From assembly GCA_942493245.1 (NCBI GenBank), contig OW818685.1, positions 4,770,973 through 4,834,972 of the forward strand: DNA of 64,000 nucleotides, in the 5' to 3' direction. Each line of letters begins with the position of its first letter. Positions within the stretch are counted from its first letter, which is position 1. A program made the position numbers and the translations under genes. This document shows positions 1 to 36,515 of this stretch, piece by piece. The notes below the pieces were generated by a model that searched no databases, was not told where the DNA came from, and saw nothing but the letters and a program-made list of their open reading frames with translations. This stretch comes from an uncultured Candidatus Sumerlaeota bacterium. GTDB taxonomy: Bacteria; Sumerlaeota; Sumerlaeia; UBA8349.

Positions 1-1730
1 GGCTCGGGGTCCGGTTCCTGTTTCTGAAAGGCCGCCACCACTTCCTCGAGATACGCTGCCGCGTCGAACATTACATCGAACACCTCGTCGCGCAGTTCGA
101 GGGCGCGGCGGCGCGCGCGCTCCAGAAGCGACTCGACCTTGTGGGTGATCCCCGCCGGGCGTTCGGCGCCGTACATCGTCAGGTTGCCCTTGATCGAGTG
201 CATCAGGCGGAAAACCGAGTCGGCGGTTTCGGTGTCGCGTTTCTCGTCGAGCGCCAGCAGTTCGCGATTCAAGCGGCCCAACATGGATTCGAGTTCCTGC
301 AGGAAGACCGAGTCGGGCAGCGCGCCTTCTCCCGCGTCCTCTTCCCCCGCCGCGCGGCGTTCGAGCGGCATGTGGCACGGCTCATCCGCACCTGCCTGGG
401 ACATCTCGCGCTTCGGTTTTTCGACGGCGCCGGACGGGGATACACCTCCCTTGAAACGCCCCACGGCGCTCCGGGCGTCCACCTCGACCTCGCGGCCCAG
501 AGTCAAGGTGAACAGTTCCGGCAAGTCAATCACCATGCCCAGCTGCCGCCCGCTCAGGGTCGCGGTACCCAGAAGCCCCTCGACCTTCAGCCCTTCATCA
601 AATTCCGAAATCACAATTTTCTGCGGGCTAAGGAAGTCGGAAACGCAGTAGGCAAGCCGTTCTTTCTTGTGCTCGATGATAATCACGCGCAACAGGTCGT
701 CCTGTACCTCGAGGGGCGCCTCGCCAAACACCGCCATCAAATCGAAAAGAGGCAGAATGTTCCCCAGATACATGATCGAACGGGCCCGACCCGTCGTGGT
801 CGTCACCTCCTTCACATTCACCGAAAGCGACGCCACAACCGCCGAAATCGGGAAAACAAACGTGTTGTTGCGCGCCCGCACCAGCAGCGAGTCGGAAATG
901 TTGACCGCCGTCACCAACGGCATCACCAGTGAAAAGGTCGAACCGCGTCCCGGCACACTCTGGACCCGCGTCTCGCCTCCGATGGCGGCCATCGCGTCGC
1001 GCACAACGTCCAGCCCCACGCCCCGACCCGACGTTCCAGTCGTTTCGCGAGCGGTCGAAAAACCCGGCTGGAATAGAAATTCGAACAAGGTATCCTCGGC
1101 CAAGCCTTCGGCTGTGGCTTCATCCACCAACCCCATCTCGACCGCCTTGCGCCGAATGGCGTCGAGTTGAAGCCCCCGGCCGTCGTCCACCACCTCAATG
1201 ATCGTGAAATTGTCCACGTTGCGCACCCGGACTGTAACCTCGCCCACCGGATCTTTTCCCACCGCCTGACGCGTTTCGCGATCCTCAATGCCGTGGTCTA
1301 TCGCATTGCGGATCTGGTGAGCCACCGGGTCGTAGATGCGCTCGGAGATTTTCTTGTCTATGCAGATCTCCTCGCCCTCCAGTTTGAAACGGATCGGCTT
1401 GCCCAGCCGCCGCGAGGTATCGCGCGCCAGCCGCCGGAACCGCGCAAACAGGTCCGACATGTCCACCGTCCGGACATCCGTCACCAGGTTATGGAGATCG
1501 GACGAGATGCGTGAGGAGGTGATCGCCAGATCCTTGGCGTCCTCGGACAGCATCCGGGACACGGACATGCCTTCGTGCAACTGGTGACTCAGGGCGTTCA
1601 GGTTCGCGCTGACAATAATGACCTCGCCCGCCAGTTCGAGCATCTTGTCCAACCGGCTCAGCCGCACCACCATGCTTTCTTCCCCCACGCCCACCAGGGA
1701 CGCGCGAACAGGTTCTCTGCTTTCAGACAT
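1..1730 (-). CDS. cheA: CheA-like chemosensory histidine kinase, C-terminus beyond window start. Domain order in the visible part is P3 dimerization, HATPase_c (P4), CheW-like (P5), then Hpt.
   Basis: My own translation of the minus strand from ATG at 1730..1728 runs with no stop to position 1. N-terminus MSESREPVRASLVGVGEESMVVRLSRLDKMLELAGEVIIV is the CheA P3/P4 junction. HATPase_c motifs are present (DDGRGL; GRGVGLDVVRDAMAAIGGETRVQSVPGRGSTFSLVMPL). A CheW-like block follows (LLVRARNNTFVFPISAVV...GRQLGMVIDLPELF). Near window positions 60-330 there is an Hpt domain (FLQELESMLGRLNRELLALDE...FRLMHSIKGNLTMYGAERPAGITHKVESLLERAR). The six-frame track does not list this ORF because it has no in-window stop. 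Confidence 0.8.
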   Translation of the reverse strand, partial: MSESREPVRASLVGVGEESMVVRLSRLDKMLELAGEVIIVSANLNALSHQLHEGMSVSRMLSEDAKDLAITSSRISSDLHNLVTDVRTVDMSDLFARFRRLARDTSRRLGKPIRFKLEGEEICIDKKISERIYDPVAHQIRNAIDHGIEDRETRQAVGKDPVGEVTVRVRNVDNFTIIEVVDDGRGLQLDAIRRKAVEMGLVDEATAEGLAEDTLFEFLFQPGFSTARETTGTSGRGVGLDVVRDAMAAIGGETRVQSVPGRGSTFSLVMPLVTAVNISDSLLVRARNNTFVFPISAVVASLSVNVKEVTTTTGRARSIMYLGNILPLFDLMAVFGEAPLEVQDDLLRVIIIEHKKERLAYCVSDFLSPQKIVISEFDEGLKVEGLLGTATLSGRQLGMVIDLPELFTLTLGREVEVDARSAVGRFKGGVSPSGAVEKPKREMSQAGADEPCHMPLERRAAGEEDAGEGALPDSVFLQELESMLGRLNRELLALDEKRDTETADSVFRLMHSIKGNLTMYGAERPAGITHKVESLLERARRRALELRDEVFDVMFDAAAYLEEVVAAFQKQEPDPE

Positions 1731-2160
1731 GGCTCATGGCCCTTTCGACGACCCGCTCGGCCAGCGGCGCCGTGAACGGCTTCGTCAGGTAATCGTCGGC
1801 GCCCATGCGCAACGCGCGCACCACATACTGGGCGTCCCGATGAGTCGAAATGACAATAACCGGCAGATGCCGCAGGGCCGGGCGGCGGCGGATTTCCTCG
1901 CACAGTTCGAACCCGTCCATCTCGGGCATCACCAGGTCGGTGAAAACCACATCCACCGGTTCCCGCTCCAGCACTTCGAGCGCTTCAAGCCCATTACCCG
2001 CCTCGAGGATTGTCATGTGGAGCGTTTTCAACACTTGAATTACGGCCTTGCGGATGGTCGCGTAATCCTCGACCACTAAGACGCGCAATTCCCGTTCCAT
2101 CCCGGGCCTGACAGCCTGACCCGTGGCAGAATCCCTCATATCATCTGGTGGCGTTTCCAT
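1723..2160 (-). CDS. CheY-like single-domain response regulator (receiver)
   Basis: ORF 1723..2217(-). REC motifs VLVVEDYA, VVFTDLVMPEMDG, VIVIST and TKPF. I prefer ATG at 2160 (METPPDD...), preceded by GGAGG 7 nt upstream. Alternative starts are 2100 and 2217. The stop TGA at 1725..1723 overlaps the CheA ATG (ATGTCTGA). Confidence 0.85.
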   Translation of the reverse strand: METPPDDMRDSATGQAVRPGMERELRVLVVEDYATIRKAVIQVLKTLHMTILEAGNGLEALEVLEREPVDVVFTDLVMPEMDGFELCEEIRRRPALRHLPVIVISTHRDAQYVVRALRMGADDYLTKPFTAPLAERVVERAMSHV

Positions 2161-2325
2161 CTCACCGCCTCCCCTCTCCCCCGATTCGTCCCTGAAGAAA
2201 CAAACAGTCCCGGGCACGCGCCTCCCTGTCGGCGCGGCGCTCCCGAAACAAGTAATACTTCCCCTCTTCTATCCTATCGGCCACCCAAGCGGAGACCTTG
2301 AGCGTTTTCCCCATAAAAGATACCA

Positions 2326-2577
2326 GGAACTCCTCATTGTCTAGTTTGCCTTTTCTGTTCGGGGAAAACAGAAACCATTTCTCCGTCATCCCCGCGAACG
2401 CGGGGACCCAGAGAAGCGCGAACCCGAGACAAGGAAGTCGTTCACGGCTCGGAAAAATCCAAACAGGGGGTTCCGGATCTGGGTTCCCGCTTCCGCGGGA
2501 ATGACGAATGAGGGAAAACCCCGAATAACCCATATAACCGGTAACATCATCGCTCGCCTATACAACGAGGAGTTCCT
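2326..2577. mobile_element. MITE-like non-autonomous element A, about 250 bp, with 15-bp terminal inverted repeats GGAACTCCTCATTGTC / ACAACGAGGAGTTCC
   Basis: Left TIR at 2326-2341 and right TIR at 2563-2577 are reverse complements with one mismatch. The same TIR bounds element B at 54647-54924. A TAAAAGAT motif is present in both flanks. The internal cargo is the 121-bp double-hairpin repeat at 2385-2505. Confidence 0.5.
2385..2505. repeat. Family-1 121-bp double-hairpin repeat, copy 1
   Basis: GTCATCCCCGCGAACGCGGGGACCCAGAG ... CTGGGTTCCCGCTTCCGCGGGAATGAC. The two ends are imperfect inverted repeats and each end is itself a GC hairpin. A second copy lies at 36273-36392. It generates the spurious ORF peptides VIPANAGTQ and WVPAFAGMT on both strands. 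Confidence 0.75.
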
Positions 2578-2643
2578 GTAAAAGATCCGGGCCACGCGAA
2601 ACGGTTTTCGAGTGGCCCGTACCTTCTGCGATTCTTTTCAAGT

Positions 2644-4110
2644 TCAAACCAGAAGATGTTCCAGACTGCGCAGGACGATTTCCGCGCCCGCCTTCGGGGT
2701 CAGACGGTCCATGTTCAGGATCAGGTCGTAGTTTTCGGCGGTATTGATATCGGCCTTGAAGAACTGACGGATGAATTCGGCGCGTTCGGCGTCGCCCTTG
2801 GCCAGGCGGGTTTCCGCCTCCTTGCCAGACAGGCCGTAGAATTCTTCCAGATTTCTCAGCCGCTTCTCTTTCGACGCAACCAAACGCACTCGCACCCCCT
2901 CGTGTTCCTCGAGGAGGAAGGGCGCCCCGCGACCCAGCAACGTCACCCCGCCCTGAACGATGAACGCACGGGTCACCCGCACCAGCGAACGGAAATAGTC
3001 ATCGCGGCTGATGTGCTGACCCTCGGTCAACACGTCGAGGAGGGCTTGAATGGCCCCCTGGGCGCGCTGGTCCAACCGGTCAATGATCCGCGGGCTGAGT
3101 TGCATGTCTTCGGCCACATGGTCTATCAGCTTGTAGCCGATGGTTTCGTACCCCAGCCGCTCGTGCAGAACCTCGCTGACCAGCCGCGATCCCGAACAGA
3201 ACTCGGGCATGAAGGCAATGCTGGGCAAGCGGTGGTGACCGCCTCCTTCCCCTTCCCCCATTTCGTCTTCATGCCAGAATTCCTTGAGCGACTCCTGCTG
3301 GCGGTACTCCCACTTGTCAATCTGGCGGCTGATGATGTCATGCGCGGATTCCTGGCGGCCCGTGCGCCAGATCGTGTCGCTGACACACTTCTGGTGCATG
3401 ACATCGAGAGCGCGCAGGATGATGTGCGCCGTCGTTTCCGGATTCAGACGGTCCAGGTTGATGACCAGATCGTAGTTGCACGGATCGTCAATGTCGAGTT
3501 TGTAATACTTCAGACTGGCGGCGGCGCGCTCCTCGTCGCTCTGGCGCATGCGCTCTTCCGCTTCCCGCGCCCCGATGTTGTAGAACTGCATCAGGTTGGC
3601 CACCCGTTTGTCTTCCGAAGCCGTCAAGCGGACCCGGATGCCCGCGCCCGGCCCCACCAGGAAGGGCGCGCCCCGCCCCACCAGAATGCAGCCCCCCTCG
3701 TGGATGAACACGTTGAGAACATGCACCAGATGGCGGAAATAGTCCTCCTGCTCGACATAACGTCCCTGCAGCAGTCCATCCACCATCGTCCGCACATAGG
3801 ACCGCAGCCGCTGGTCCATCCGGTCTATCATCTGGCGGCGCACGTTCATGTCCTCGGCCACTTTGTCAATGAGCGAGAACCCGAAAAGCCCATACCCGGT
3901 CCGCCGGCTCAAGACCCGGCTGACAATTCGCGAGGCGCACCCAAACTTGGGCGCCAGGGTGATGGCCGGCTTGAACGGACCCTTTCGGCCCGAGGTTTCC
4001 ACCCACGGCTGCGGACGCCACCCGACCGCCTCCTCGCGCCGTTCCTCCTGATCGCGTTCCAGTTCCCACTTCTCGATTTGATGATTAATGAAATGATCCA
4101 CACTGCGCAT
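2644..4110 (-). CDS. Tandem-duplicated cytidylate kinase-like family protein (two Cytidylate_kin2-like modules, P-loops degenerate)
   Basis: 488 aa with two homologous halves. Each has ...GRGAPFL..., VRVRL(V/T)AS(K/E)(E/D)KR..., and a (R/K)QFFKADI..ENYDLILNMDRL-type C-terminus, which matches the PF13189 family pattern. The P-loop GSGG is replaced by GCAS / CSGS. ATG at 4110 is preceded by AGGGGGT. Confidence 0.8.
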   Translation of the reverse strand: MRSVDHFINHQIEKWELERDQEERREEAVGWRPQPWVETSGRKGPFKPAITLAPKFGCASRIVSRVLSRRTGYGLFGFSLIDKVAEDMNVRRQMIDRMDQRLRSYVRTMVDGLLQGRYVEQEDYFRHLVHVLNVFIHEGGCILVGRGAPFLVGPGAGIRVRLTASEDKRVANLMQFYNIGAREAEERMRQSDEERAAASLKYYKLDIDDPCNYDLVINLDRLNPETTAHIILRALDVMHQKCVSDTIWRTGRQESAHDIISRQIDKWEYRQQESLKEFWHEDEMGEGEGGGHHRLPSIAFMPEFCSGSRLVSEVLHERLGYETIGYKLIDHVAEDMQLSPRIIDRLDQRAQGAIQALLDVLTEGQHISRDDYFRSLVRVTRAFIVQGGVTLLGRGAPFLLEEHEGVRVRLVASKEKRLRNLEEFYGLSGKEAETRLAKGDAERAEFIRQFFKADINTAENYDLILNMDRLTPKAGAEIVLRSLEHLLV

Positions 4111-4527
4111 AATCCCGTTACCCCCTGCAAGGATTTCTACCGAGACTCATTCCTCGACCGCGGCACCCCCGCGATATTTCCGGCGCTTCCCCGAGTCCCG
4201 GGGGATATGCCCGCGGACCGCCTCTCCAACAGACCCGTTTCCTCATCGGAGAAAACCGTCTGTTTCCGACCTTTTTCAACGTCTGCGGCTGTGTGCCCTC
4301 CATCCGGCTCCTGCCGAAATTCGCTTCGTTCTTTAGATTCAGTATCGCGCCGTGGGTCCGGGCCTGTCAAGGAGGGAAAACATTCATTTTTACCTGCTCC
4401 GCGCCCGGAAACAAAATCCTGTCCCCACATCTTTACCCCCCAAAAAGATGAAAACCGCCTTTATTCAGCCCATAAACTTGAAAATTTATTTTAGAGCAAT
4501 TGTCAGAAAGAACCTTCATTATTCCGG

Positions 4528-4611
4528 CTGTCGGTCCTGACGATCAGCCGTTCCGTCCCGGAGGGACGGCTGAAAAACCAGGGGTAACCGACAGCCGTCC
4601 CTCCGGGACGG
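4528..4611. other. Structured palindromic element: inverted duplication of a CCGTCCC-N3-GGGACGG hairpin enclosed by an 8-bp long-range stem
   Basis: CTGTCGGT (4528-4535) pairs with ACCGACAG (4587-4594). Hairpin CCGTCCCGGAGGGACGG is at 4553-4569 and its reverse-complement copy CCGTCCCTCCGGGACGG is at 4595-4611. It is intergenic, downstream of the giant gene and upstream of the CMP-kinase-like gene. Confidence 0.45.
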
Positions 4612-4817
4612 GGAAGACGGGTGTTCCGGAACCCAGCGCTGAAGCGCTCGGCTATTGTCAAAAGTCCCTGACGGGACTTGGGTCAGGAACACCTGACTCC
4701 GTGTCATAATGAAGATTCTTTTTGGCAAAGGCTATATCTCCAGAAAGTGGCTCTTCGATGGACGCCAGACAGACGCCTGGCGGTCCCGGGGAGTGGTATA
4801 TCCCCCTCAGGAAAAAA

Positions 4818-5002: not shown

Positions 5003-8000
5003 TCATTCCACGATACCTGCCGCGCTCGTGTGGATGATAAACTGCGTGACAGGCGGTTGAGCCGGTTTGAACTTCGGCCTGGCTTTCGGATCGGTCGAAA
5101 TGAAAGCCTCACCCTCGATCCGGCCCGTTTTCGACGTGGTGATGCTCTTGATCCCGCCGGTGTAGACGGCCGTGCCGTCCTCCTGGAAGCCCGCGTAGAA
5201 CTGGCCCGACACCCCGTTCAGACCCGACAGAGTCGTGATACAGGAAATCGTTCCGGTCTTCGGCTGCGCCAGCACTCGCATGCGGCTCGGTTCCCACGGG
5301 AAGCCCAGGTAGCCGCCCAGATAGACGGTCCCCACCTTGACGGTCTTCGCCGACAGAAGCGCGATCGGTCCCGCGCTCTTCAACTCCGACGTCCTCAGGT
5401 TGCCCTGCAGGATCCGGGTGCCCACCGTTGTGGTGGCATAGGCGCCCCCGCTCACCATCACCTTTGCGACCGGCCCCTGCGTACCCTGCAGTAAGCCGAG
5501 CGCCACCGGTCCACCGGTGGATTGCACCAGCGCGAAACTCGGCGCGGAGAGCCAGGTGTCCTGAACCGACAGGAGCGTTCCGCCCTTGACATCCTTATCC
5601 ACGTCGCCCAGGGCGCCGATACCCGCCTGGCTGAAGCGCTTTTCCTTCGTGGCCGAGTCTTTGAACTTGCGCGTGGCCACCTTGACGTACTTCACCGGCT
5701 GCGAGGTCAAAAGGCCCTCGAGCACTGCGCCGTTGATCGCCACCGACAGGGGAATACTTCCCACCGTCTGAATGGAGGTGACGCCAAACTCGGTAAAGTT
5801 CGTCCGCGACGAATTGTATGACGCCGTGATCTTCAACGTCCCGACGTCCCCGCCCTTGTAATCTTCCAAGCCGTTGGCCGCTGTCACCGACTTGACCGAA
5901 GAGGCCTGCATCCGGTAGATCGGCGCATCCGAGGCGAACGTGCCAAAGAGGCCCGGAATCACAACCGACGGAATCTCGCGCGTTTCGAGGTATGCGGTCC
6001 CCGGTTTCGCCACCGTGCCACTCGCCGTTCCGGCAGGCAGTCCCTTGGGCAGCCACTTGATCTTGATCGCGCTCTTGTCCGTGGTGCCGTTCAGGGTCAG
6101 GCCACCCGTGGTCGGAGTATCGAATGCCAGCGTGATGTCCTTGCTGTACGTGATCTTATACGCGCGCAGTGGCAATGTCGGGAGGAAGAGCCACCCCTGA
6201 GCCGGACCGCCCAGAGCGCCGGCGTTTTCACCCGCCGCGCCGTTGGCCGCCTGCACCCAGTAGTAGTACGTCTGACGCCGCTTCGCGGTCACATCCTCGA
6301 AACTTGCGGAGGACTGCCACAAACTGATCGCCTGCGGCGTGTCGGTCGGCGATTCGGCGCGATAGACCCGGTAGTAATACCCGTAACCCGCCAGGGGTTG
6401 CCACGAAACGTTGACCCTGCTGCCCCATTCGCCCTGACTGGCCGCCAGACCGCCCGGCGTCGGGATCGGCGCCACATAGAGCGTCGTGAACGTCCAGACC
6501 GGTCCACTGGTACTGCCAATGGCGTTCTTCGCCACCACCTTCCAGTTGTAAACCGTGTTCGATTCCAGTGAACCCGACGGCGTGAACTGCGTTCCACCCA
6601 GATCGCTCGCCATCGGCGTGGACGGCGTCGGATCGGCCGGTTTCCACAGATAGAAGTCGTGGCTCAGAGCGTTCGAGCCGCCACTCCAGTAGAACGTGGG
6701 AGTCAGCGACACATCCACCGCCCCATTCGACGGGTTGGGCCAGCTGGGCGCGCCCGGCGCCCCGACAACCCGCGTGACAAACGTGAAAATGTCACTCGAC
6801 GTCTGTCCCGCCCAGTTCACCGCCGTGACCTGCCAGGTGTACGTGGTCCCTCCCTGGAAAGTCGGACTGTTCCACCAGTAATAACTCCAGGTCGCCGATA
6901 CCGTCGTGGGGGTGGCGTCGCCCTGTTTCCAGACCGACAGAATGTAACTGTCGGCGTTGGCCGCGTCGTTCCAGTCGAAGGTGGGATCTTCCAGCACGCC
7001 TTCGGCGTTGTTCTCCGGCGAAATCAACTGCGGTTTCTCCGGGGTCACAATCGCCCGCGTCGTGAAACTCCACTCCGGACCCGGCGTTTGCCCCACCATG
7101 TTGCGAGCCACCACCTGCCACTTGTACGTTGTGGCGCCCTCGAGCATCGCGGACGGCGTGTAGTGACTCGCGGTCAGATCGGTCACGGTCGGTTGCGCCG
7201 GTTTGGCGTCCGTGGACTTCCAGAGGTACAGATCGTACTTCGAAGCCGCCGACGAGTCGGCCCAGTCCAGCGCGGTCGTCGGGAGAACCGCCGTGGCCCC
7301 ATCCGACGGAGTCGGTCCGCCCGGCTCACCGGGCAGCGCCGGCGTCTCGGTCGTGAACGACCACAACGCCCCGAGCGTTTCACCCTTGGCGTTCCCGGCA
7401 GTCACGAACCAGTAGTACTTCGTATTGCCCTCGAGCGCTCCCGCCGGTTTGAACGAACTGGCGGTCAGCCCCGACGTGGTCGGAACCGTCGGACGAGGTT
7501 GCGCGGACGGCCACAGGTACACGTTGTACCAGAGCGCATCGGTCGCATCGGACCAGTCGAGCGTCTTATCCACCGACACGTTCGTTTCACCCACATAGGG
7601 GGATGGACTGTCGGGAATCACCGGCTCGGGCGAACCCACACGCTGGGTACGGAACGTCCAGACCGGCCCGACCGTATCGCCCGTCGCGTTGCGCGCCACC
7701 ACCTGCCACTTGTACACCGTGTTGTACGCCAGATCGCCCGGATCGTACTCGGTCGAGTAGGCATAGTTGGGCCAGCCGGGTTTTCCATCCACCTCGCGCC
7801 AGACATAAATCAGGTAGTAACTGCCGGCCCGCGCGGACGCTTCCCAGGCCAGATTGATCGCCACCGAAACGCCGGTGGAATTATCGGGTGGGTTGAGCAG
7901 CTTCGGTACGCTCGGCGCGCCCTCGATATGGGTCCGGAAACTCCACTCCGGTCCGGCCTTCTGGTTGGTCTTGCCATTGACCACCACCTGCCACTGGTAC

Positions 8001-11000
8001 TCGGTGTCGAAGTCGAGATCCGCCGTCGGCTTCCACGCCGGGTCAGTCAAACCTGTTATTGTCGGCGCGACCGGCTTCGCCTGAGTCTTCTTCCACAGGT
8101 AGAGATCCCAGGAAAGCGCTCCGGCCGAACGGCCCCACGTCATCGTCGCATCCACCGGAATGGAAAGCGAAGCGTCTTCCGGGTAGGGCGAGAAGGGCGC
8201 CTGAATGTCCGTGCGGAACGTCCAGACCGGTCCTTCCGTCGAATCCACCCGGTTTTTCGCCACCACCTGCCACGAATACGTCGTCAGGTAGTCGAGGGCG
8301 GCGGGCAGCGGATACTGACTGACCGACAGCGCCTCGGCGGTGAACGTGGTGGGCACAGGTTTGTCGGCCCGCCAGAACTTCAGGTCGTAAGATGTCGCCA
8401 TCGGCGTGTCGGCCCAGTCCAGTTGCAACGCGACCGATGCGGTCGTTGCGCCGTCCGCCGGAGCGGGTTGCGCCGGGGTCTCGGGTTTCAGCAGGATCGT
8501 CGTGAAGGTCCAGGTCGGCCCCTCGGTCCCCCCCGCCGTGTTGCGCGCCACGACTTTCCACTTGTAACTGGCGTCGTAGGGCAACGTCTGCGGCGGCGAG
8601 TACTGACTCACCGTCAAACCCGACGTGGTGGGCGACCAGGGTTGCCCTTCCGTCGCTTTCCAGAGATAGACGTCGTAGGTCGCCACGCGCTTCGAGTCCG
8701 CCCAGTCCAGCGTCAAGGTGACGGGCGCAGTGGTTGAATTGTCCTCGGGGTTGGGCGTCGTGGGCGCTTCCGGCGCAGTCAGATAGATCGTCCGGAACGC
8801 GGATTCCGTACTCGCCACCGTTCCCTGTGCGTTGCGCGCCACCACCTGCCAGCGGTAATCCGTCCAGTAGGCCAGACCGCCCGGTACCTGGAAGGTCTTG
8901 CCCATCAGCCCCGCCTGAGTCGGAACAACCGGTTTGGCCTCATTCGACTTCCACAGATAGAAGTCATACGAATCGGTCAAGCCGCCGCCGCTCCAGTTGA
9001 AGGTCACATCCGACTCGACGTTGGTGGCGTTGTTGGCCGGGGTCAGCAGAATCGGGCGTTCGGGCCAGATGGACGGCGCAAACGTCACCTGATCGACCCA
9101 CCCGGCGTTACTGCCCGCCGTCCACCACCCACGCGTATAGACCCACTTGAGCGAGTGCGATCCGGCGGGCACCTCGACGGTCTGTGAGGTCCAGCCCACT
9201 TCGCCGTTGATCGAGACCTGTTGCGCATCGTCAATGTAGAACCGCAGCGTGGTGTCGGTGTGCGCCGAGAGTTTCCACCAGAACGTCAACGTGCGATGCT
9301 CGGTCGTCGAGATGTCGGCGCGCAACGTGCTCGGCACGTTATAGCCCGTGTTGCCGCTCTGCGCCGCATCAACGCCGTCGTGCGTCACCTCGGTCTGATA
9401 GAACCACGTTGCGTCCCCTTCGGTGGACCATGTCATGGGCAGCAGGTTCGCATCCACCGAGTTAGCCAGATTCTTCGGATAGACGCTCAACAGCCACGAT
9501 TCTTCGTCCGAACCCAGTTCGTTCGTGGCGCGAATGGTCACCGTGGTGACCCCCTCGGTCGCCGAAGCCCACGAGACCACGCCGGTGCCGGCGTCAATCG
9601 TCATGCCCTGCGGACCGGCCACCAGCGACCAGGCGATCGGCTGCGCGCCCTGAACCATCTCCGGTGTCGGACCGGTATAAGATTCACCGACCGAGACCGA
9701 AGCGTCGGGAATTTCAACAATGACCGGCGCCTGCGGATCAATGATATTCAGAGTCACCTGCGTCTGCATCGCGGTGCCAAGCTCCACATACCGCGCGGTC
9801 AATGTGACCTGGGATGGGGTCGGAGCATCCGGATCAATCGTGATCTCGACTCCGTTAATCTCAACATAATCCGCCGGAGCCGCCTCGAACTCGATCGTCG
9901 AGGTCACGTTCAGACGCGTACCGTTCACATAGTTGACAAACGCGCGTCCGTTGATCACATTGCCCGGACTGACGTTGATCTCAGTCCCTTCGGCCATCGC
10001 CTTCGACACCACCCGACCCACTCCGTCTTCCACCTGCGCGGAAAGCGCCTTGAGGGTCGAGGACGTCTCGGGGAAGTCCAGATAGACTTCGAGGTTGCCC
10101 GCCAGGACGCGGTGATAGAGCGACACGTAGCCCTCGCGCCAGCCGATCATCAGCGTCTGGTCGTTGTTGCTGAATCCCACCGACGCTGCGCCGATGTTCT
10201 CCTCACCCATACCCGAAGCCGGCAGGAACTCGCGGATCGTCGAGCCGTCGTTCATGTTGATGAGCCGCACCGGGCGCGCCGATTGCCCCGGCTTGCTGCC
10301 GCCCGAAACACCCACCAGCGCCAGCGTCCCATCCTCGGAAATGGCCACGGTGAAGGACGCGTCCACCGACTCGCCCATCAGCGCATCCACCGTCACACTC
10401 ATGATGAAAATATCATTGACCAGAGAGGGACCGGCGACCAGGTCCGAAATGTCGTAGGTCTCCAGATAGTACATGTGGGTCTGTTCAATATCGTCTCCCG
10501 AGACCTCCTCGGTCACGGCCACACACCGTGTGCCCAGTTCGTTCACAAACAACTGCAAGGGCGAGTGGCGCGTCTTCATGCCGTTGAACAACAGACCCGC
10601 GCTGTTCCAGATCCCGATAAACCGTTCATTGTACATGCCGCCCAGGAAGTGGTTCTCGAGGCGGAAGTCAAGAGCGCCCGCCACACGGGATTCCTCGCGA
10701 ATCTGGCTCAGGTTCGCCAGATCCCACAGCCGCACCTTCGAGTCCGCCGTCACCATCCGCGTTCCCTGCGGCGAGATGGCAAACGCAGACGCCGGGGTAT
10801 GCAGCGTTTTCCAGAGCAGATCGTTGGCCGTATCGTACATGAAGATCGAAACGCCCACGCGCGTGGCCAGTTTCGAACTGTCGTTGGTAAAGTCCATGCC
10901 CTCGAACTTCGGGTCAATGAAGTACCCGGTTTCCATCAGGCGCGTCGCGGTCATATCCACCCGGTTTGTCCCCGGTGTCCACTTCATGGTCCGCTTCGGA

Positions 11001-14000
11001 TCCTGCGTGAAGACCGTCTTGCCGTCTCCGGAGATATGCGCGCCGCTCATCGGGAAACTGTGCGCCAGCGACCCTCGGAAGATCCCGCGTCCGACTTCCC
11101 AGAACTGGAACGACGAAAATTCGCTGATCTTTTCTTCCTCGCCGATGTCCATCCCCATGAACGACACACCCACCGTCTTGCGGCCCGTCGTGCGGCCCGT
11201 CACCACATACTGACCCGACGGATCCACCAGGTAGTGGACAATCTTGCCTTCTGCCGGCGGGTGGTCCAGCCACCGCAACAACAGCCCGTCCTTGTTATAG
11301 ATCCAGGTCGAAACCGGGTCGTTCGTGGCCACATACAACTGTTCGCCGATCACCTTGGCCGCCGTCACAGCCGCCGGGTACTCGTAACGGTCTATCACCT
11401 CGAGGTCCGACTTGCGCCAGCGCGTCAGGGTCTGGTCTTCACCCGTCGAATAAAACCCGTCCGTCCCGAGGTAACCCACCGCCGTGACCGGCTTGGTGTG
11501 AACCAGCAGACCGCTCGGGCGCACCCGGGAACCATCCGTCCGGTTGAACACCATGACGACGTTATCCGCGCCACCGCTCAGCACCTGCGTGCTGTCGAGC
11601 GCCACACTCTGCGTCTTGCCCGTGTGGGCCGGCTTGAGCCATGTGAAGACATTCGTCGAGAGGTCGAACAAACCCACGCGTCCGATCTCATCGCCCACCG
11701 CCAGCATCGCCGTAGCGCCCGAACCCGAGAGCGCCGCACAAACAATTCCCGCATCGTGCGTGAACACGGTCAACGGTGTCGAGGTCGGCACATCCACAGC
11801 CCAGGTCTTGATCGTACCTTCGCCGCCCACCGTCACAATACGCGCCGCGTCCAGATACGCCACGAAGGATATCTGTCCTTCGTGCGCCATGATCACCTGT
11901 TTGATCTGGTACTGCGACGGCGTCACCCCCACCTCGTAGAGGTTGATCGCGCCCGAGCTGCTTCCCAGGGCCAGATTTTTCCCATCCGCGCTGTAGGCGC
12001 CGGACAGACCGTACCCGCCACCCGTCACCTGATAGCGTTCCCACTCGGTCTTCGGGCCGTACAGCGTCACCACCGTGTCGGTCGTGATCGTCTCGCCCGA
12101 CAGCGCCGTGTAGGAACCCGTCACGAGGTAATTGCCCGGACGGGCCGTGTAGTTCACCTTGACGTTCTGCCCCAGAATCTCCATATCCTCGGGCTTGTCC
12201 GCCGTGAGCGTCACATCGGCCGAGACGTCGGCGCTGTAGCCGTCGTCCCACCACGCCGTGTACCGGATGTTACGGAACACGCCGGGGTTCAGGGACAGGT
12301 GATTCGGATCGGCCACCAGCGACACGACCCGGGCGCCGTCCTCATTCACCAGCACCCGCGCTTCGCCGGTCAGGTTCCGGCCACTCTCGCGGTACTGGGC
12401 GCGCAGGACAAACTCACCTTCGGCGCCCGGAGCCACTGTTACGACATTCCCCTCGAGGGTGGCCATCGAGGCCGGTTCGACCTCGATCGTCACCGACGTG
12501 GCTTCCACGCCGCTGCGCGGCGTGATATCGCGCCGGGTGCTGTCGTCATAGACCAGTTCGACCGTGTAGTCCTGGCTCTCGCCCGGTTTCAACACACGCA
12601 GGCTCGGGGTGATTTCGATGCGATCGGCCTGCGAGCGCTCGTACGTTTCCACGTAGTTGTAACTCCAGGCGATCATGATCAACGAGTCGTTGCGCGCGAA
12701 TTGGACCGACCGCACCCGCACGTCCATCAGGCTCGAGTGCATCGGGTAGAAGTAGCGCAGAATGCGGCCCGTCTTGACGTCGTAGAGCCGCACGGTGTTG
12801 TCGCCGCCGATCAACAACAGCGACCCATCCTGCGAAAGCGCCGCATCGTAGTTTGTCCCCTCGAACCGGTACAACCCCACCGGCAGCTGTTTCGGCATGT
12901 CGTACATCTGGACGCCGGTGTGCGCATCCACCATCCCCACTCGTTTGCCGTCGGGGTGGTAAAGCATCTTGTAGGGCGTGTAGGGATTCGTGTTGGTCAT
13001 GTTGTACAGCACGGCGTTCGGGTCATTGGTGCGCAGGGTGATGAGCGACTTGTTGTTGGCGATCGCAAAACCCCACTTCGATCCGTCGCCGCTGAACGCG
13101 CTCTGGTAGTTGCCGTCCGGGCTGGCGTAGTTCGCGAACAGGTCACCCGTCTTGGCCGAATAGAGACGGTCGCCCAGCGCCGCCAGATTGCCATCGGGCG
13201 ACAGGCTGATGTTCGTGTAGTAATAGGTTCCCAGCGTGCGGTCGAGCACCTTCGAGAAGCCTTCGTCACTGACCGCTTCGATCTGGAAACGCCCACTCCA
13301 TTCGTTCGTGATCCACGCCACTTTCGAGCCGTCGTTCGATACATCGAAACCGTAAATTCCATTCAACCCGTCCGAGCGCCGGATCGTCTTGCCCGATTCG
13401 CGCTGCAACAGGTTCATGCCCCAGTTGGTCTCATAGAACAGCCGCGCGCCGTCCTGCGAAAGTCGCGGACGAGCGCTGTTCCAATCCGAAAAGTATCCCT
13501 GCGGACCATACTGCCCGACAAAGGAACCGTCGGAAACCAGGAACACCGCCGACGGCGCCCAGCCGTTCCCGTTCGAATTCACCATCACCCGCTGACCCGC
13601 GTCGTCGAACGTCACGTTGTCGAGGCTGCCGCCCCAGTTCCCACCCGACACGGTATTCAGGTTGATCTGATAAAGTTCCAGTCCCAATTCGTCGTACATC
13701 CGCAACATGGCCTGGTTACCCGTTCCGGTAATCATGCAAATGCGCTTGCCGTCGAACGAAACCGCGGCGCCCTGCGCATTCTGGCCCGTCAGAGAGATCG
13801 TACGCACCGGCATGTGGGTGGAGATTCTCCAAAGTTGGACCGTGGCGTCAGTCGAAGCCGTCATGAGGTGGCTGCCGTCACCCGTGAAACCCACCGCCGT
13901 CACCGCCTGGCTGTGGCCCAGGAACGCCTGCCCCACCTGTACGCCCGTTTCCGAGTTCACCAGGTACGCAAAATTGTCGCTCGTTCCCACCGCAATGGTC

Positions 14001-17000
14001 TGCCCATCCGGCGAGTACGCAATCGCGTTGACGGTCGCATTGCCCGGCACAAACTCCCAGAGTCGCCGCTGCGTGTCAATGTCAAGCAGCATTCCCTTGC
14101 CCTCGGTGATGACCATCAACTTGCTGAAGTCGGGGGACGGCACCGCATAGGTCACCAGCAGGTCGGCGAACATCGCCGAACGCAGCGAACCGGACGTGTT
14201 CAAGTCCCAGATATAGACCGCGCCATCGCGGCTCACCGTCACCGCCGCCGAGTCGTCGCTCGAGAAACCCGCGTACCGCACCTTGTCGTAGTGGTCCTTG
14301 AGCATGATCAACGGCGTATTCGACTCGGAATCGAACACCCAGGCCGAGCCCGTGTCGTAGCCCAGAATCACCCGGTTGCCCGCGTGGTTGAAGCGCCCGC
14401 TCACCCGTGTGCCACCCGGGCTGCGGTAGGTCAGCGTCCACTTCATGTTCTGGTTGGGGTTGTCGCCCAGCCCGCTGCCGACCACAAGCCGCGCCTCGGG
14501 CGCCGTGCCCGAAACCATCTGACCCGCGCCCACCCCGATTCCCTCCGACCGGATCGAGAACGTGATCTCGTCGCCGTTCTTCAGGTTCGCGAAGTTAGCC
14601 ACGGCGATCATGTCGCCGCGCGAGACAAAGGACGCGTCGAACAGGAGCGTTCCCGCGCCCGTCTCCGTGATCTGCAACTGGCCGTCACCCACCACCAGTT
14701 CGTCGCCTGCATCCACAACTCCGTCGCTGTTCTTATCCCAGTACACCCGCGCACCGCTGATGTCCGCGATCTCGATCCCCGTCATGTTGGACATATCGAG
14801 TTGGAGCGACTGCGCCTCGATGCCGGCGGGAGCCAGTTGGAACCCGAGAATCGGCACGTCGTCCTGAGACGCGCTCGCGCCGAAATTCGTCGGCGCCTGC
14901 CAGGCCGCGCTCTTCGAGAGCTGTAATGGATACTTCACAATATGCGTCACCGCGTCCGCGGCGCCGCTCACCGTAGCGGTCCCCACCAGTTTGATATCCG
15001 CGGTCGAGAGTCCGATCTTGAAACGGTTGCCACCCGACAGGTACGCAAAATCCGCCACCACCAGGTAAGCGCTTTCGGTCGCGAACGTCTGGCGGCTGAA
15101 CTCGATCGTACCGCTGCCACCCGAAACACTCACCTCCGGCGCACCGCCCACAGTCCCCTCGCCCGCATCCACCACGCCATTGCCATTGGCGTCAGCGATC
15201 AGGCTCACGCTGCGAATCTTCTGCGCGGTCAGGCCCTCAACGTTCGACAGACGCACGGTCAGGCGCTCGACCTGTTTCGTCGCATCGCCCTTCAACTGGA
15301 AGCCCAGCAACCGCACATCCTGCTGCGCGGCATAGGCGTTCAACTGGTCGGACAACTGTCCGTCCACCGGATTCGACAGAATCACCGCCGGACCCGCCAC
15401 GTGCCGCGCCGAATCCGCTTCCGTCTCGATACCCGTCCCCGCCGGAACCCGGCAGAACCGGTCGTTCAGTGACACTGTAAATCCCTGCCCCGCAACCACA
15501 TCGCGCGCGTCGGCCAGCAGAATGTACGCGCCCGACGGAGAATTCTCCGACACGAACGGGTCGGAGAAAACCACCGACTGGTTCGAGCCTTCCGTCAACA
15601 ACAACCCCGCTCCGCCCACAGTCGTCTGTTCCGAACCGCTGATGCGCCCGTCGCCATTGGTGTCCACCGCCAGGCGGAAGTTCGCCATCTGGCTCCACTG
15701 GAAGTTCCCGGCAGCCTCGCTCAAACGGAACCCGACCTCACGCACCTGCGACGCCTGGGGCGTCACCCGGAACGCCAGCAGTTCCACCGCCGAGAGCGCC
15801 GAACCCACTTCCAGATTGGTGCGTTCCTGACCCGTCACCGGGTTCACGAACCGCACCATCGGGAAAGACGGCTCCAGACTCAAGCCCGTGTAATTCACAT
15901 AATCGGTCACCGGATCACCCAGACCCGCCGCGTTGCCCACATGCCGCGGTCCGGTCGCAGAACCCCACCAGTTGTCCGGCGCGTCGAAGGCCGTCTGCGT
16001 GTTGTTGTACACCGCATAGTTCGAACTGTTCTCGAAGAAGTTCCCCGTCAGGGTCGGCGCAGTCGCCATCGCACCGGTGACCCCGTACGTGTTCCCCGTC
16101 CAGATCGTGTAGGCGTTGCCCACGAACCCACTGCGGGTCACTTCCCAGTTTCGATCCGTCTGGAACAGCAACGCCATCGGCGTTATCGTGCTCTCACAAT
16201 TCACCGACGTGAAGAAACAGCCGTCCGCGTACAACTGACCGCCCACGAGACTGTTCGCCGTATCCGGCGGCGCGACCCACACATGCGCCGCCCACCAGTT
16301 TATGTCGGTTGTTACATTGGCTTCATGCACGTAGAAGCTGCATGTTTTCAGGTTCGCCGTCCCACCGGCGTACACTTCCAGCGGACTCACTCGCGAGGAG
16401 GCGTAATACAATCGGGCCGCGCGCCCCAGGAACGCCGTCCCGGTGGCCTGCATCGTCCCATAGACCCGGATCGACGCCACCGAATCCACTTCGACGTCCG
16501 TCAGGTTCAGCGTACCGCCCGCCTCCACCACCAGCAACCGGTTCGGATGGTCCGTGACCAACGTACTGCTTGTTTCGAACGTCAGCGTCCCACCGGCCTT
16601 GACCACCACCGTTCCATTGCTGGAATACTGATCCGCATTGGTGTTGTCGAACAGGATCTGTGTGCCTTTGTTGCGTACCACCGCCGTGCCTGTCACATCC
16701 CCCCAGATCCGCACGTTCGACTGGCAGTCCTGGAACTGGCACACTCCCACGTTCTGAACACCCGTGCCGAACTTCCACCCGATGCCGTAGCTGAACCCTC
16801 TGAAGGAACAGGGAATGGGCGTCGCCTGCGTGGTGTCGTCCCCGATGCTCGCATTCGGCAGCAACCGCATCTGGACGCCAAACGATGTCCGGTTGCCGCT
16901 GAGCGTGTTGAGCGACTCGAACGAGCATCCCTTCACCTGAATCGAACTCGTGTCCGACGACGTCACAATCGCCGACCATCGCCAGTTATCCGTATAATTG

Positions 17001-20000
17001 CGCTCGATGGATCGCAGTGAACAGCGGTTCAACTCCACATTGCCGCCGTTCAGAACTTCGACCCCGTTGAACCGCCAGCTGTCGTAATACTCCGCGCGTG
17101 TGTAGAACTGGAAGTCCGCGTCAGACGCCACCAGCGTCCCACTCACCTTGATGGCCGTGAAATCCAAAGACCCGCCGTGTCGCACACGGACTCCCGGCCC
17201 GATCGTCAAAGTGACTCCAGCCGGAACCACCAGCTGCGACGTGATCAGATAATCCTTGGTCGTATCATTCCAATTCGTATTCGCCGCCAGAGTCCCTCCG
17301 ACGACGTTCTGGGCATCGTCGTCCATCTCGACCACCTGGACCTGTTTCGACACGACCCCAACCGTTGAACCGGACTCCGCGATCTGGAACTGGGTGGTTC
17401 CATTCGCCGAGTCTCCATCCGCCGCTGCCGCCAGCGTTACGGCCACCGGTGTGTTCCACGCAGACGGTTGAATCTGGAACGTCGCGCCACTCGAAACCGT
17501 CAGATCGGCGTCGCCCCCGGCCACCGCCGTCACCGCCAGCGACACCGGCGCCGAAGGCATCGCGCTGAGCCACACGTGGAAAACCGTCGTGCCCGCTTCA
17601 GCCACCGGCATCTCATCCAAATCGGTCATGACCTCAACCACAGCCGCCACGGCGGGCGAGGCATCCGCCACCCCCATCACTTCGGCGGTCAACAGGTCGT
17701 TGTCGCGGTTCACATCCTCAACCACGCTCGCATCATCGCTCCGCACGTCAAACTTCGCCGGCGTTTCCGGCGACACACTGCCCGCAGGCAGATCCACCGG
17801 CACCTCGGCGCTCGTACCCGCCGCCAGCGCCGGGATCGAGGCCGTTGCCAAAGCCGCGCCACTCGCGCCTGCCGGGCGCACGCCCAGCGTCGCCACCGGC
17901 GACTCCGGTCCACCCGCGTTGCGCACCCGCACCACCAGCCGCGCCGAACCATCCGCCTGCGCCACAGACGAAACCACTTCCATCGGACTGAGGTCCGTGC
18001 CACCCAGCGTCACCCACTGCTGGTTGTTGTATTCGTTGAATTCCGTCACGGTCGAATCCGCGTCCACCACGGCGTACAGCGTGTGCGCGCCCACCGGTTC
18101 GGGGATCGTCCAACTCAACGCGACCGTCACCGACGTGCCGCCCTCGAACCAATCGCCCAGTACCCGCCGCGCCACTTCCACGCCGCCCGCCGCCGGGTTG
18201 CCGTCGTACACCACCACCGAGGCGCCCTGCACGGGCAGGTCGCCCGTGTTGCGCACCAGAATCTCGAAATCCACCACTTCGCCCGAGAGCAACGGGCCGG
18301 CGGAATAGGTCAGGTCGCCCGGCAGAATCGCCAGATCCTTCACCAGCGCCCGCTTCACCACCGCCAGATCCGCCTGGCCGCGCGTCGGCACGCCACCGAT
18401 GGTCACCGACCCGCCGCCATCCAGCGCGATCGTTTCGGTTGTCAACGAAACCGCCTGGCGGTTGTACGCCACGGTCAGGTTCCCCAGATCGTCCCACGCC
18501 GGGGCGTACGCATACTCGATCGCCGCGTCCTGGAACAGCCGCCGATCCTGGCTCCAGACACCGGAGGCCGGATCATAGACCGTGTACATCGCGTTCGTCC
18601 CCTCGGCCGTCTGCGCCTGCCAGATCAACCCAAGGTTCCCGTCGGGATTCGGAGCCAATGCAAAGTCCATGAAGCCCATCGAGTTCGAGTTCGCCCGCAC
18701 GAGCGAGGTCGTCGTCTCGAAATTCTGGTTCATCACCAGGTCGCTGCCCATCTGCCACACCAGATACGTCTGGCCCGTAGCCGTCACGGCGGCCCGGATC
18801 GAATCGTCCAGAACCGCGTTGTTCGTCAACCGAGCCGGCGCGCTCCACGATGAGCCGTTGTATTTCGTGTAATACACTTCCGTGTCTTGCGTCGAGCTGG
18901 TCGCCAGATCGAGTTCGCGCGTATAGGCGTACACGGCCAGATTCCCCGCGCCCGCCAGCGTCTCCGCGCGCTCGCCGGTCAGGTTCGCCACGAGCGCAGC
19001 CGGGGCCGACCAGGTATTCGCATTCGCGTCGAACCGCGCCCAATGCGCCGTCGTCGGAGCCGCGTCGCTCCCGACGAAATAATTTTGCGCGTTCGACTTC
19101 CACGTCAGCAACACGCTGCCGTCCGCCATCGGCCCGCACAACTGCGGACACTGGTCCAGGTACGCGTTGTCCGTCAACGCCACCGGTGTTGACCACGTGT
19201 GGGCCGAGTGGTCCCACCGCGCCCAGACGATCTCATACAGCGGCATGATGACGTCCAGGTTCGCGGTCGTCAGGTTCGGATCCTTCACCCGTTCCCACAC
19301 GGCCACCGCGTCGCCATCGCCGTCGAACGCCACCTGGGGCGCGAACTCACCCTGAGTGTTCGTCTGGATCGGCGCCGGGGCCGACCAGGTTGTCCCGTTG
19401 TAATACGTCCAGTGAATATCCGCGAACTGCAAGTCCGCCCCACCATTGTCCGCCGAATAAAGCAACATCAACGTCGAGCCGTGCGAGGCCAGCGCCGGAG
19501 AGGAATCCGGGTACACATTCGTCACCAGCGTCAGGTCCGCCTGCTCCAGACCCGACGTCACACTCTCTCCGTCCGCCTTGACCAATCCCTCCGCCGCAGC
19601 CCGCACCGGCTGCGCACCCGACGTTCCCAGCATCCGGAAACGATCCAGCGGCGTCTCGCCCGATTCGGCAGACTGAATACCGACCGATGCGCCCGAGGCC
19701 ACAAACTGGCTCGGACCGTTGGCCAGGTAGGCCCGCGACACGGGCCGCTGCCCCGTTACAGAAACGCCATCGGCCAGGAGCGAATTGGGACTGAAGAGCG
19801 CGACGATCCCTTCGCCTCCCTCTGACGGGTAGGTCAGGAACGGATACTCGCCCTTGACCACTTCCATGTCTTTCCACTTGAAGATCGCCCGGACCAGCGC
19901 CTTGAACTCGATCCCCTTGAATTCCGGAATCTGCAAGATGCGCGTTTTCAGCGCCCCCTCGCCACCCACCGACAGCTCCGCCGTCAGCGCCTTATAGAGG

Positions 20001-24241: not shown

Positions 24242-24680
24242 GGTGGACCACCTTTCCTGACCCGGCGACCGTCTTGAACGGCCCTCCCGGGTTCTTTGAA
24301 AAAAATACCCTCTGCGCCTCGATAGATCTTCCGTTCGGAAACGCAAAGACGATGAGTCGGGCAGGCGCACTTCGCCCGCCGGTTGAAAAAGCGCCCGGTC
24401 ATTCCACAACCAGACGCCAAAACCCGTCTGCAAAAGACGGGGGAAAACCAGACACACAGGGTGTTGACGCAACTGCGGGGAACCGGCCCGGGGAACACCC
24501 TCATCCGAGACTCGTTCGCGGGGGACAAAAGCATTCCCCCATCTCGCCCCGGAAAACCATTCCGACTTTTGATGACTGTGTACAGACCTCTAACGGTTCT
24601 TCTGTCACAAAAAAACCGCCCCATCCCCACGCACAAGAAATTTGGAAAACCCGCGCAAAACCACACTCTTCCACATATAT

Positions 24681-36272: not shown

Positions 36273-36392
36273 GTCATCCCCGCGAACGCGGGGACCCAGA
36301 GGAGCGCGAACGGGAAAACAGGGGGGGAACTCAGGGGAAACGCAATCAACCAGAACGTCCCGGATCTGGGTTCCCGCTTTCGCGGGAATGAC
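36273..36392. repeat. Family-1 double-hairpin repeat, copy 2
   Basis: Near-identical ends to copy 1 (GTCATCCCCGCGAACGCGGGGACCCAGAG ... CTGGGTTCCCGCTTTCGCGGGAATGAC). It is flanked at about 100 bp on each side by the perfect 12-bp palindrome CTTTTGCAAAAG (36171-36182 and 36473-36484). Confidence 0.75.
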
Positions 36393-36515
36393 GAAAAGTG
36401 GAATGGCGTTTAGACCCGAATGTAAAAAACATTCAAAACGATCAACCCAACTTTGTCGCCGTTTACTCCATACTTTTGCAAAAGGCTCAATCACCTCGAA
36501 AAGGAGACCGGAAAG

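Follow-up and report, generated by a model that had tools for sequence, protein, structure and literature searches.

The closest described relatives of the protein reported here are single-module members of the Pfam family PF13189 (Cytidylate_kin2), represented by the structures 3hdt, a 'putative kinase' of Clostridium symbiosum, and 3fdi, an uncharacterised protein of Eubacterium ventriosum, both unpublished structural-genomics entries. PF13189 is a large family whose members routinely carry a wrong label, either 'cytidylate kinase' or 'AAA ATPase'. We analysed a 64,000-nucleotide stretch of contig OW818685.1 from an uncultured Candidatus Sumerlaeota bacterium (the whole stretch is hereafter called the window), in which one gene encodes two such modules in a single polypeptide (Table 1). 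The protein is already catalogued as a 'cytidylate kinase-like family protein'. What is new is that it belongs to a Sumerlaeota-specific, anciently fused and site-remodelled form of PF13189, with conserved pairing to a gene for a tandem universal stress protein (Usp) and often to a V-type ATPase operon. As the best overall explanation, we lean with modest confidence towards a stably maintained protein of this description that works as a non-phosphotransferring, ligand-binding pseudo-dimer together with Usp.

Each half of the protein is a full PF13189 module

In a Pfam scan, the whole 488-amino-acid protein matched PF13189 with 207.9 bits in two stretches. The N half alone scored 105.8 bits (residues 50-220) and the C half alone 107.8 bits (residues 298-468), both over profile positions 2-175 of 176; the gathering cut-off is 28 bits. 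An earlier note on this DNA, made from the sequence without database searches, had proposed two full Cytidylate_kin2 modules in one polypeptide and had named HMMER against PF13189 as a check, and both halves lie well above the threshold. Aligned to each other, the halves share 44% identity over 234 residues (E = 2e-66).

The duplicated unit (~240 amino acids) exceeds the Pfam domain, with ~45 residues containing an xQIxKWE helix preceding each module. In leader helix 1, W15 is invariant in A1/A2 and 88% conserved among single-module relatives; in leader helix 2, R262, Q263 and W267 are invariant in the orthologue alignment. The N-terminus of the protein can be aligned across 12 orthologues. 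The exact 488-residue sequence is present in NCBI and recurs across independent assemblies, and the members of its 90% cluster carry the name 'cytidylate kinase-like family protein [Candidatus Sumerlaeota bacterium]'.

One ancient duplication gave rise to two conserved module types

A search of 5.8 billion proteins returned 15 relatives; the full-length ones are two-module proteins of 473-495 amino acids, and all that are named come from Sumerlaeota or Sumerlaeia. Among 185,579 GTDB species genomes, only three carry the gene, all of them Sumerlaeota. The full-length architecture is kept in 13 orthologues, with identity down to 48%.

Single modules are far more widespread. An exhaustive search of 1.84 billion representatives with a single-module profile gave 8769 cluster representatives at E <= 1e-3 by that profile alone, 452 of them at E <= 1e-30. 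The best 150 of the 8769 are nearly all single-module proteins of 225-255 amino acids, and these match from profile position ~3-8, so that the leader helix is included. Two-module architectures number three among these 150: the Sumerlaeota cluster, P0019 (493 amino acids) and P0133 (388 amino acids). In a neighbour-joining tree, the N-modules of the Sumerlaeota proteins formed one clade and the C-modules another, the latter also holding P0018, a 204-residue protein that is probably a fragment. The two clades together grouped with the single-module proteins P0016 and P0017. The halves of P0019 paired with each other, and so did those of P0133. Mean module identities were 53% (N-N), 50% (C-C) and 38% (N-C). 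The separate clades and the identity pattern point to one ancient tandem duplication in Sumerlaeota followed by divergence into two conserved types, and the self-paired halves of P0019 and P0133 to at least two independent duplications elsewhere. Since P0016 itself comes from Sumerlaeota, these genomes also keep a canonical single-module paralogue.

Relative to the orthologue with 90% identity (locus L001), the ratio of nonsynonymous to synonymous substitution rates (dN/dS) was 0.111 for the whole gene (N-module 0.109, C-module 0.113), at a dS of 0.51. Both halves are under purifying selection and thus functional. The non-canonical loop motifs in both halves could be taken as signs that the gene is without function, as a duplicate in decay or an artefact of fusion, and we practically discount this in view of the dN/dS of each module, the architecture kept down to 48% identity and the recurrence of the sequence in independent assemblies.

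The putative active site has been remodelled in the Sumerlaeota clade

The earlier note had read the residues at the place of the phosphate-binding loop (P-loop) as GCAS and CSGS, with neither GSGG nor a Walker A motif, and the sequence bears this out. In the N-module, G57 and R61 are invariant among the orthologues, and in the structure model the loop sits between strand 49-54 and helix 60-71; in the C-module, C305, G307 and R309 are invariant in 13 orthologues. A weak, low-scoring alignment to the cytidine monophosphate (CMP) kinase 1q3t (DGPASSGKST) pairs the Walker lysine with loop position four (Ser60/Ser308) and the Walker Ser/Thr with the next residue (Arg61/Arg309), so that both modules read Ser-Arg there; this domain alignment is in line with where the model puts the loop, between beta1 and alpha1. 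At the same positions, canonical PF13189 proteins show Gly followed by Arg or His (GSGGR in 3hdt, GSGGH in 3fdi). Compared to CMP kinase, the family shows Gly or Ser in place of the Walker lysine and Arg or a variable residue in place of the Ser/Thr. Judged from these alignments, the whole PF13189 family is without both residues essential for P-loop phosphotransfer.

The loop also varies within the family. In a set of 148 single-module relatives, 30% have GSGG as the four-residue loop, 43% fit G[SACT]GG and 63% have small residues only; the third position of the loop is frequently R, L, Q, M or H. A G-[SA]-G-G motif following 'SR' is not matched in the window protein (APKFGCASR and MPEFCSGSR). 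With a loop already variable among single-module relatives, GCAS (GCGS as clade consensus) falls within family variation. The four-residue motif is thus not truly defining for PF13189; its conserved parts are the Arg of the 'SR' motif in beta1 (89%) and the first loop Gly (97%). The degenerate P-loop described in the earlier note is therefore not special to this protein but a property of the whole family.

What does mark the clade lies apart from what had been flagged. We took the 25 columns that are at least 80% conserved in the 148 single-module relatives and compared them with 10 N-modules and 10 C-modules. Most were retained by both modules, including W15/W267, D99/D347, G145-R146-G147 (393-395), A164/A412, R169/R417, R195/R443, D214/D462 and N218/N466. 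The core and lid residues kept are the GRG Arg146/394, Arg159/407, Arg169/417, Asp192/440, Arg195/443, Asp214/462 and Asn218/466. The 'SR' Arg is replaced with Pro in 10/10 N-modules and 7/10 C-modules, the 'DE' Glu, which is 89% conserved in the family, with Gln in 10/10 and 9/10, respectively, and the first loop Gly with Cys in all 10 C-modules. Such fixed, clade-specific substitutions at conserved polar and Gly positions indicate a site that has been remodelled rather than one in decay. The idea that a post-loop Arg offsets the loss of the 'SR' Arg was dropped, as relatives without the latter are no likelier to carry the former (roughly a quarter to a third by eye, uncounted, versus 29% overall).

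Against TIGR02173 (CMP kinase), the protein scored 51.4 bits with a cut-off of 102.1, and only residues 137-236 were aligned. With that score and without conservation of the Walker Lys and Ser/Thr positions, it is not a CMP kinase by curated criteria, and almost certainly it is not a cytidylate kinase. It may nevertheless be an active phosphotransferase of another kind, with Arg61/Arg309 replacing the Walker lysine and one or both modules catalytic, as in tandem adenylate kinases. The fold of nucleoside monophosphate (NMP) kinases is retained, purifying selection is strong, and the loop, built of small residues throughout (G, C, A, S), is compatible with an anion hole; moreover, the GRG arginine, the 'RVRLxAS..R' block and the lid 'D..R' are kept and align with DGRD and KIFLVAS..ER of CMP kinases. 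However, all family members examined lack both a Lys and a Mg-coordinating Ser/Thr at the Walker positions, the third loop residue is bulky in many relatives, the conserved Arg and Glu have been lost from both modules of the clade, and the score remains under the curated cut-off. We consider an active kinase the main rival reading, though an unlikely one. The most reasonable reading is a ligand-binding or regulatory role other than that of a kinase, much as suggested in the earlier note.

Another alternative is a redox switch, in which Cys305 and the frequent Cys58 would be reactive thiols controlling ligand binding or the interaction with Usp under oxidative stress. All 13 orthologues have Cys305, where 97% of relatives have Gly, Cys58 is found in most N-modules, and the gene is linked to a stress-protein gene. 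In the model, Cys305 lies just ahead of helix 308-319; the N-terminal end of a helix is a location that commonly lowers the pKa of a thiol. The argument is purely one of position, however: ~10% of single-module relatives have a Cys at loop position 2 to which no significance is known to attach, the C-x3-R and C-x2-R spacings differ from the CX5R loops of phosphatases and arsenate reductases, and no thioredoxin or peroxiredoxin genes are linked. This switch appears improbable to us.

A structure model is compatible with an intramolecular pseudo-dimer

An AlphaFold2 model built from a 13-sequence alignment had a mean predicted local distance difference test score (pLDDT) of 68.9 and a predicted template modelling score (pTM) of 0.71. 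Both cores were modelled with confidence (blocks at 78-94), whereas the leaders, the inter-module linker and residues 79-120 and 337-346 were poor; pLDDT was below 50 in 127 of the 488 residues and low in leader helix 1 (residues 4-25). If one module of ~190 residues were the only one placed with confidence, pTM would be at most ~0.35-0.4, a bound that we obtained by our own arithmetic from the definition of pTM, so the value of 0.71 indicates that both cores are placed confidently in one frame. The model is compatible with the pseudo-dimer that the earlier note had suggested.

For each module, the best Foldseek matches were 3hdt and 3fdi (E = 7e-9 and 9e-7; template modelling score, TM, on the target 0.84 and 0.89; root-mean-square deviation 2.0-2.2 A), and the profile-to-sequence matches to the same two proteins had E = 7e-17 and 8e-15. 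Gluconate, adenylate, dephospho-CoA and CMP kinases followed with TM ~0.45-0.55. Both 3hdt and 3fdi contain two chains per entry, and this, together with the recurrent independent fusions, fits a dimeric working unit. A role in a defence system was rejected: the only match was a weak one of 51 residues to the kinase part of pVip-kinase (26 bits), which amounts to generic fold similarity.

In other lineages the gene is paired with a tandem Usp gene

In all eight other lineages with visible upstream DNA (L002, L003 with frameshifts corrected, L004-6, L007, L011, L012/13, L014 and L015), a tandem-Usp gene lies 22-161 bp upstream of the two-module gene on the same strand. It encodes a UspE-like protein of 296-335 amino acids with two Usp domains. 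Directly downstream, five lineages (L004-6, L007, L010, L011 and L012/13) have a V-type ATPase operon composed of genes for E-like, DUF2764, A, B, D, I and K. By tblastn, no Usp gene, even a degraded one, and no V-type ATPase gene was found in the window or in L001. As for single-module loci, a Usp gene lies 5 kb away in L018 and none was seen in L019 or L020; a Usp linkage general to the single-module family was set aside, as it was not seen in two clades (a small sample).

The ATP-binding motif of Usp proteins is G-x2-G-x9-G-[ST]. By eye, domain 1 of the Usp partners (for example L004 1452-2360 and L002 613-1503) has a shortened G-x2-G-x6-G-A-S, and in domain 2 the motif glycines are missing altogether (N-T-R-S-R...R-T), which leaves domain 1 as the only plausible nucleotide binder. 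In L003 (8612-10972), the Usp gene and the two-module gene are both split by frameshifts, with tblastn frame switches at ~8990 and ~9980. These are probably indels of a long-read assembly, and they account for the short gene calls of 336 and 172 amino acids.

In the window the gene is flanked by its own transcription signals and by unshared neighbours

The gene is preceded by a sigma-70-like promoter with 10/12 consensus matches in a consensus scan, ~230 nucleotides upstream of the start codon, and L001 has the same two hexamers. The window and L001 are homologous at the DNA level over exactly 2644-4433 (85% identity), i.e. the gene plus 323 bp upstream, with the stop codon as one end and 4433 as the other; beyond these limits the two DNAs are unrelated. 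The upstream block (4111-4433, minus strand) is ~85% conserved with L001 while dS of the gene is 0.51, and it includes several invariant blocks in the leader. It may be a regulatory leader, as judged from the two sequences compared. The contig of P0002 begins inside the gene and provides no third leader sequence. The leader shows one true compensatory pair between the window and L001 (CGGC/GCCG versus CGGT/ACCG), its fold is not significant (z -1.0), and no Rfam match was found in its ~225 nucleotides; with these results from two sequences, a riboswitch or known RNA is unsupported. A coding origin of the block (a 97-codon open reading frame, ORF, at 4137-4430) is ruled out by indels relative to L001 that break the frame.

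Past the stop codon, the terminator-like hairpin was equalled in stability by none of 200 shuffled sequences. With its own promoter, leader and terminator-like hairpin, the gene is predicted to be an autonomous transcription unit in the window lineage.

On the far side of this hairpin is a dispersed repeat resembling a miniature inverted-repeat transposable element (MITE). It is ~125 bp long with imperfect ~28-bp terminal inverted repeats, each with a short GC hairpin (GTCATCCCCGCGAACGCGGGGACCCAGAG ... CTGGGTTCCCGCTTCCGCGGGAATGAC). A second copy is at 36273-36401 in the window and a third at 11597-11710 in L001, just downstream of the orthologue. The repeat sits exactly where synteny between the window and L001 stops and could point to a hot spot of rearrangement. 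Between the giant gene described below and the promoter, a perfect 20-bp inverted repeat with a 19-nucleotide loop (4553-4611; folding free energy, dG, -51.7 kcal/mol, z -7.65) occurs once in the window; a terminator, an insulator and a repeat element are all conceivable. Adjoining it, positions 4632-4678 (plus strand; local fold z -3.0) gave a sub-threshold Rfam match to the full-length Acido-Lenti-1 model (28.4 bits versus a gathering cut-off of 37, E = 9e-4).

Table 1. Features of the two-module gene, its product and its flanks (window coordinates)
Feature	Position	Strand	Details
Two-module PF13189 gene, complete, stop codon included	2644..4110	-	ATG start, 488 amino acids; from the ORF list
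N-module (residues 1-245): leader helix, linker and NMP-kinase-fold core	3376..4110	-	
Leader helix 1 (residues 4-25), motif xQIxKWE, Q11 and W15 conserved	4036..4101	-	
N-module P-loop equivalent, F56-G-C-A-S-R61; clade consensus G-C-G-S-R	3928..3945	-	sequence read directly
C-module (residues 246-488): second leader helix, acidic/Gly linker and second core	2644..3375	-	
Leader helix 2 (residues 256-281), RQIDKWE, doubling as inter-module linker	3268..3345	-	
C-module P-loop equivalent, F304-C-S-G-S-R309	3184..3201	-	sequence read directly
Sigma-70-like promoter: -35 TTGACA (4370-4365), 18-nucleotide spacer, -10 GATACT (4346-4341)	4341..4370	-	
Conserved non-coding leader, ~225 nucleotides, promoter to start codon	4111..4335	-	
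Terminator-like hairpin, 17 nucleotides past the stop codon, ending in CUUUU	2580..2627	-	dG -28.2 kcal/mol, z -4.9
MITE-like dispersed repeat at the downstream border, outside the gene	2385..2507	.	further copies elsewhere

The upstream neighbour of the gene is a giant ORF (5003..24472, minus strand; 6489 amino acids). By eye it appears to have a signal-peptide-like stretch after an internal Met, so that translation probably begins further downstream than the listed TTG. Downstream are the gene of a receiver protein (Response_reg, 1723..2217, 107.6 bits in Pfam) and a CheA-like ORF (H-kinase_dim, HATPase_c, CheW and Hpt) that runs off the start of the window. In this CheA-like kinase (1-1730, minus strand), Hpt follows CheW instead of leading the protein, and its gene starts right after the receiver gene.

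The earlier note had placed the two-module gene on the same strand between the giant gene and cheY-cheA. The neighbours and the strand were as described, but non-coding gaps of 892 bp (to the stop codon of the giant gene) and ~430 bp (to the receiver gene) separate them. A role of the two-module protein as an accessory to the cheY-cheA pathway or to the giant surface protein would have adjacency and the common strand in its favour. Opposed to this are the two gaps, the conserved promoter and terminator-like hairpin of the gene itself, a terminator-like site after the giant gene (4925-4909), and L001 homology that stops exactly at the stop codon and at 4433. Neither che genes nor a giant gene were found near the orthologue at any of 11 other loci. 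In L001, the orthologue is flanked on both sides by ankyrin-repeat genes (5407-9396, 1329 amino acids, and 11820-12797, 325 amino acids; unusual for bacteria), and in L017 (85% identity) by opposite-strand genes for an NTP-transferase and a GHMP kinase; the window and its 90% and 85% orthologues thus present three different contexts. No relative shares the neighbourhood, a situation that the earlier note had itself named as refuting its proposal. We regard the accessory role as effectively refuted, and the suspected functional tie to the chemosensory genes and the giant protein is removed.

Discussion

We are highly confident of the descriptive part of our explanation, a stable and selectively maintained two-module PF13189 protein. 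A unit of ~240 amino acids was duplicated in tandem once, early in Sumerlaeota, its copies diverging into N-type and C-type modules, both conserved ever since. The two modules probably pack as a fixed intramolecular pseudo-dimer, in place of the homodimer that is probable for single-module relatives. The remodelled loops and the retained Arg/Asp constellation may bind a ligand that is anionic or phosphorylated, with a nucleotide as the most plausible candidate, but would transfer no phosphate, which would make the protein a sensor or regulator rather than an enzyme. It may work with the two-domain Usp as a pair responsive to stress or energy state, a pairing that would have become unlinked in the window lineage. 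This part, the sensor or regulator acting with Usp, is tentative, and we put it forward at less than even confidence.

Several points weigh against the explanation as a whole. The Usp pairing is absent from the very lineage in which we describe the protein, two single-module relatives have no adjacent Usp gene, and adjacency does not by itself prove interaction. Model quality is poor in the leader helices and in residues 79-120. The retained Arg/Asp constellation, together with the invariant Arg61/Arg309, could still support catalysis. In the literature we found no functional paper on PF13189 and no biochemical data for any member, so that 'non-catalytic' is a conclusion drawn from sequence; no paper ties the family to Usp, and two Sumerlaeota genomics papers mention neither.

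If a hetero-complex with Usp is real, it would be a new type of pseudo-kinase sensor of energy or stress and the first function for PF13189, a family of thousands of members. In its most specific form, the two-module protein and the tandem Usp would build a complex of 2+2 domains that senses the adenine-nucleotide or redox state via the remodelled, Cys-bearing anion loops and controls the adjacent V-type ATPase, either its activity or its expression; we offer this as a speculation with little chance of being right in full. For the family as a whole, the Sumerlaeota proteins provide three handles: a natural fused dimer, which suggests a dimeric working unit; defined substitutions in the putative active site, fixed under purifying selection; and a tight, conserved pairing with tandem Usp, frequently together with a V-type ATPase operon.

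Of the known systems, the single-module PF13189 proteins 3hdt and 3fdi are the closest. Each half of the Sumerlaeota protein matches the family over its full length (106-108 bits) and these structures with TM 0.84-0.89; both sides are without the Walker lysine and have the GRG, R..L.AS..R, D..R and YD..N motifs in common, and the N-terminal Q..W leader helix is also present in the closest single-module relatives (225-255 amino acids). The Sumerlaeota protein differs in being a fusion of two modules, rare in the family (three architectures among the best 150 of 8769 matches), in the changes of 'SR' Arg to Pro, 'DE' Glu to Gln and, in the C-module, Gly to Cys, and in the tight linkage of most of its genes to tandem Usp.

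With Cmk (EC 2.7.4.25; TIGR02173, the archaeal type; 1q3t, 2cmk and 2h92) it shares the P-loop NMP-kinase fold and a recognisable homology of core and lid (the DGRD arginine and the K/R-I-F-L-x-A-S..E-R block). Unlike Cmk, it is without GxxxxGK[ST], scores half of the cut-off, reaches a TM of ~0.5 and has leader helices and a tandem architecture. The Joint Genome Institute (JGI) label of cytidylate kinase should not be applied to the two-module protein. Human adenylate kinase 5 (AK5; PDB 2bwj, among the fold matches) likewise has more than one NMP-kinase-fold module per chain. In AK5, however, the domains are catalytically active and have retained the canonical Walker A motif, and beyond the fold no sequence relationship to the Sumerlaeota protein is known.

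The UspE-type tandem Usp encoded next to the gene in other lineages has an unrelated fold (Usp, PF00582) and is absent from the window. It is, like its PF13189 neighbour, a small protein of nucleotide-binding fold that is internally duplicated, and the 2+2 domain count of the two proteins suggests a matched complex.

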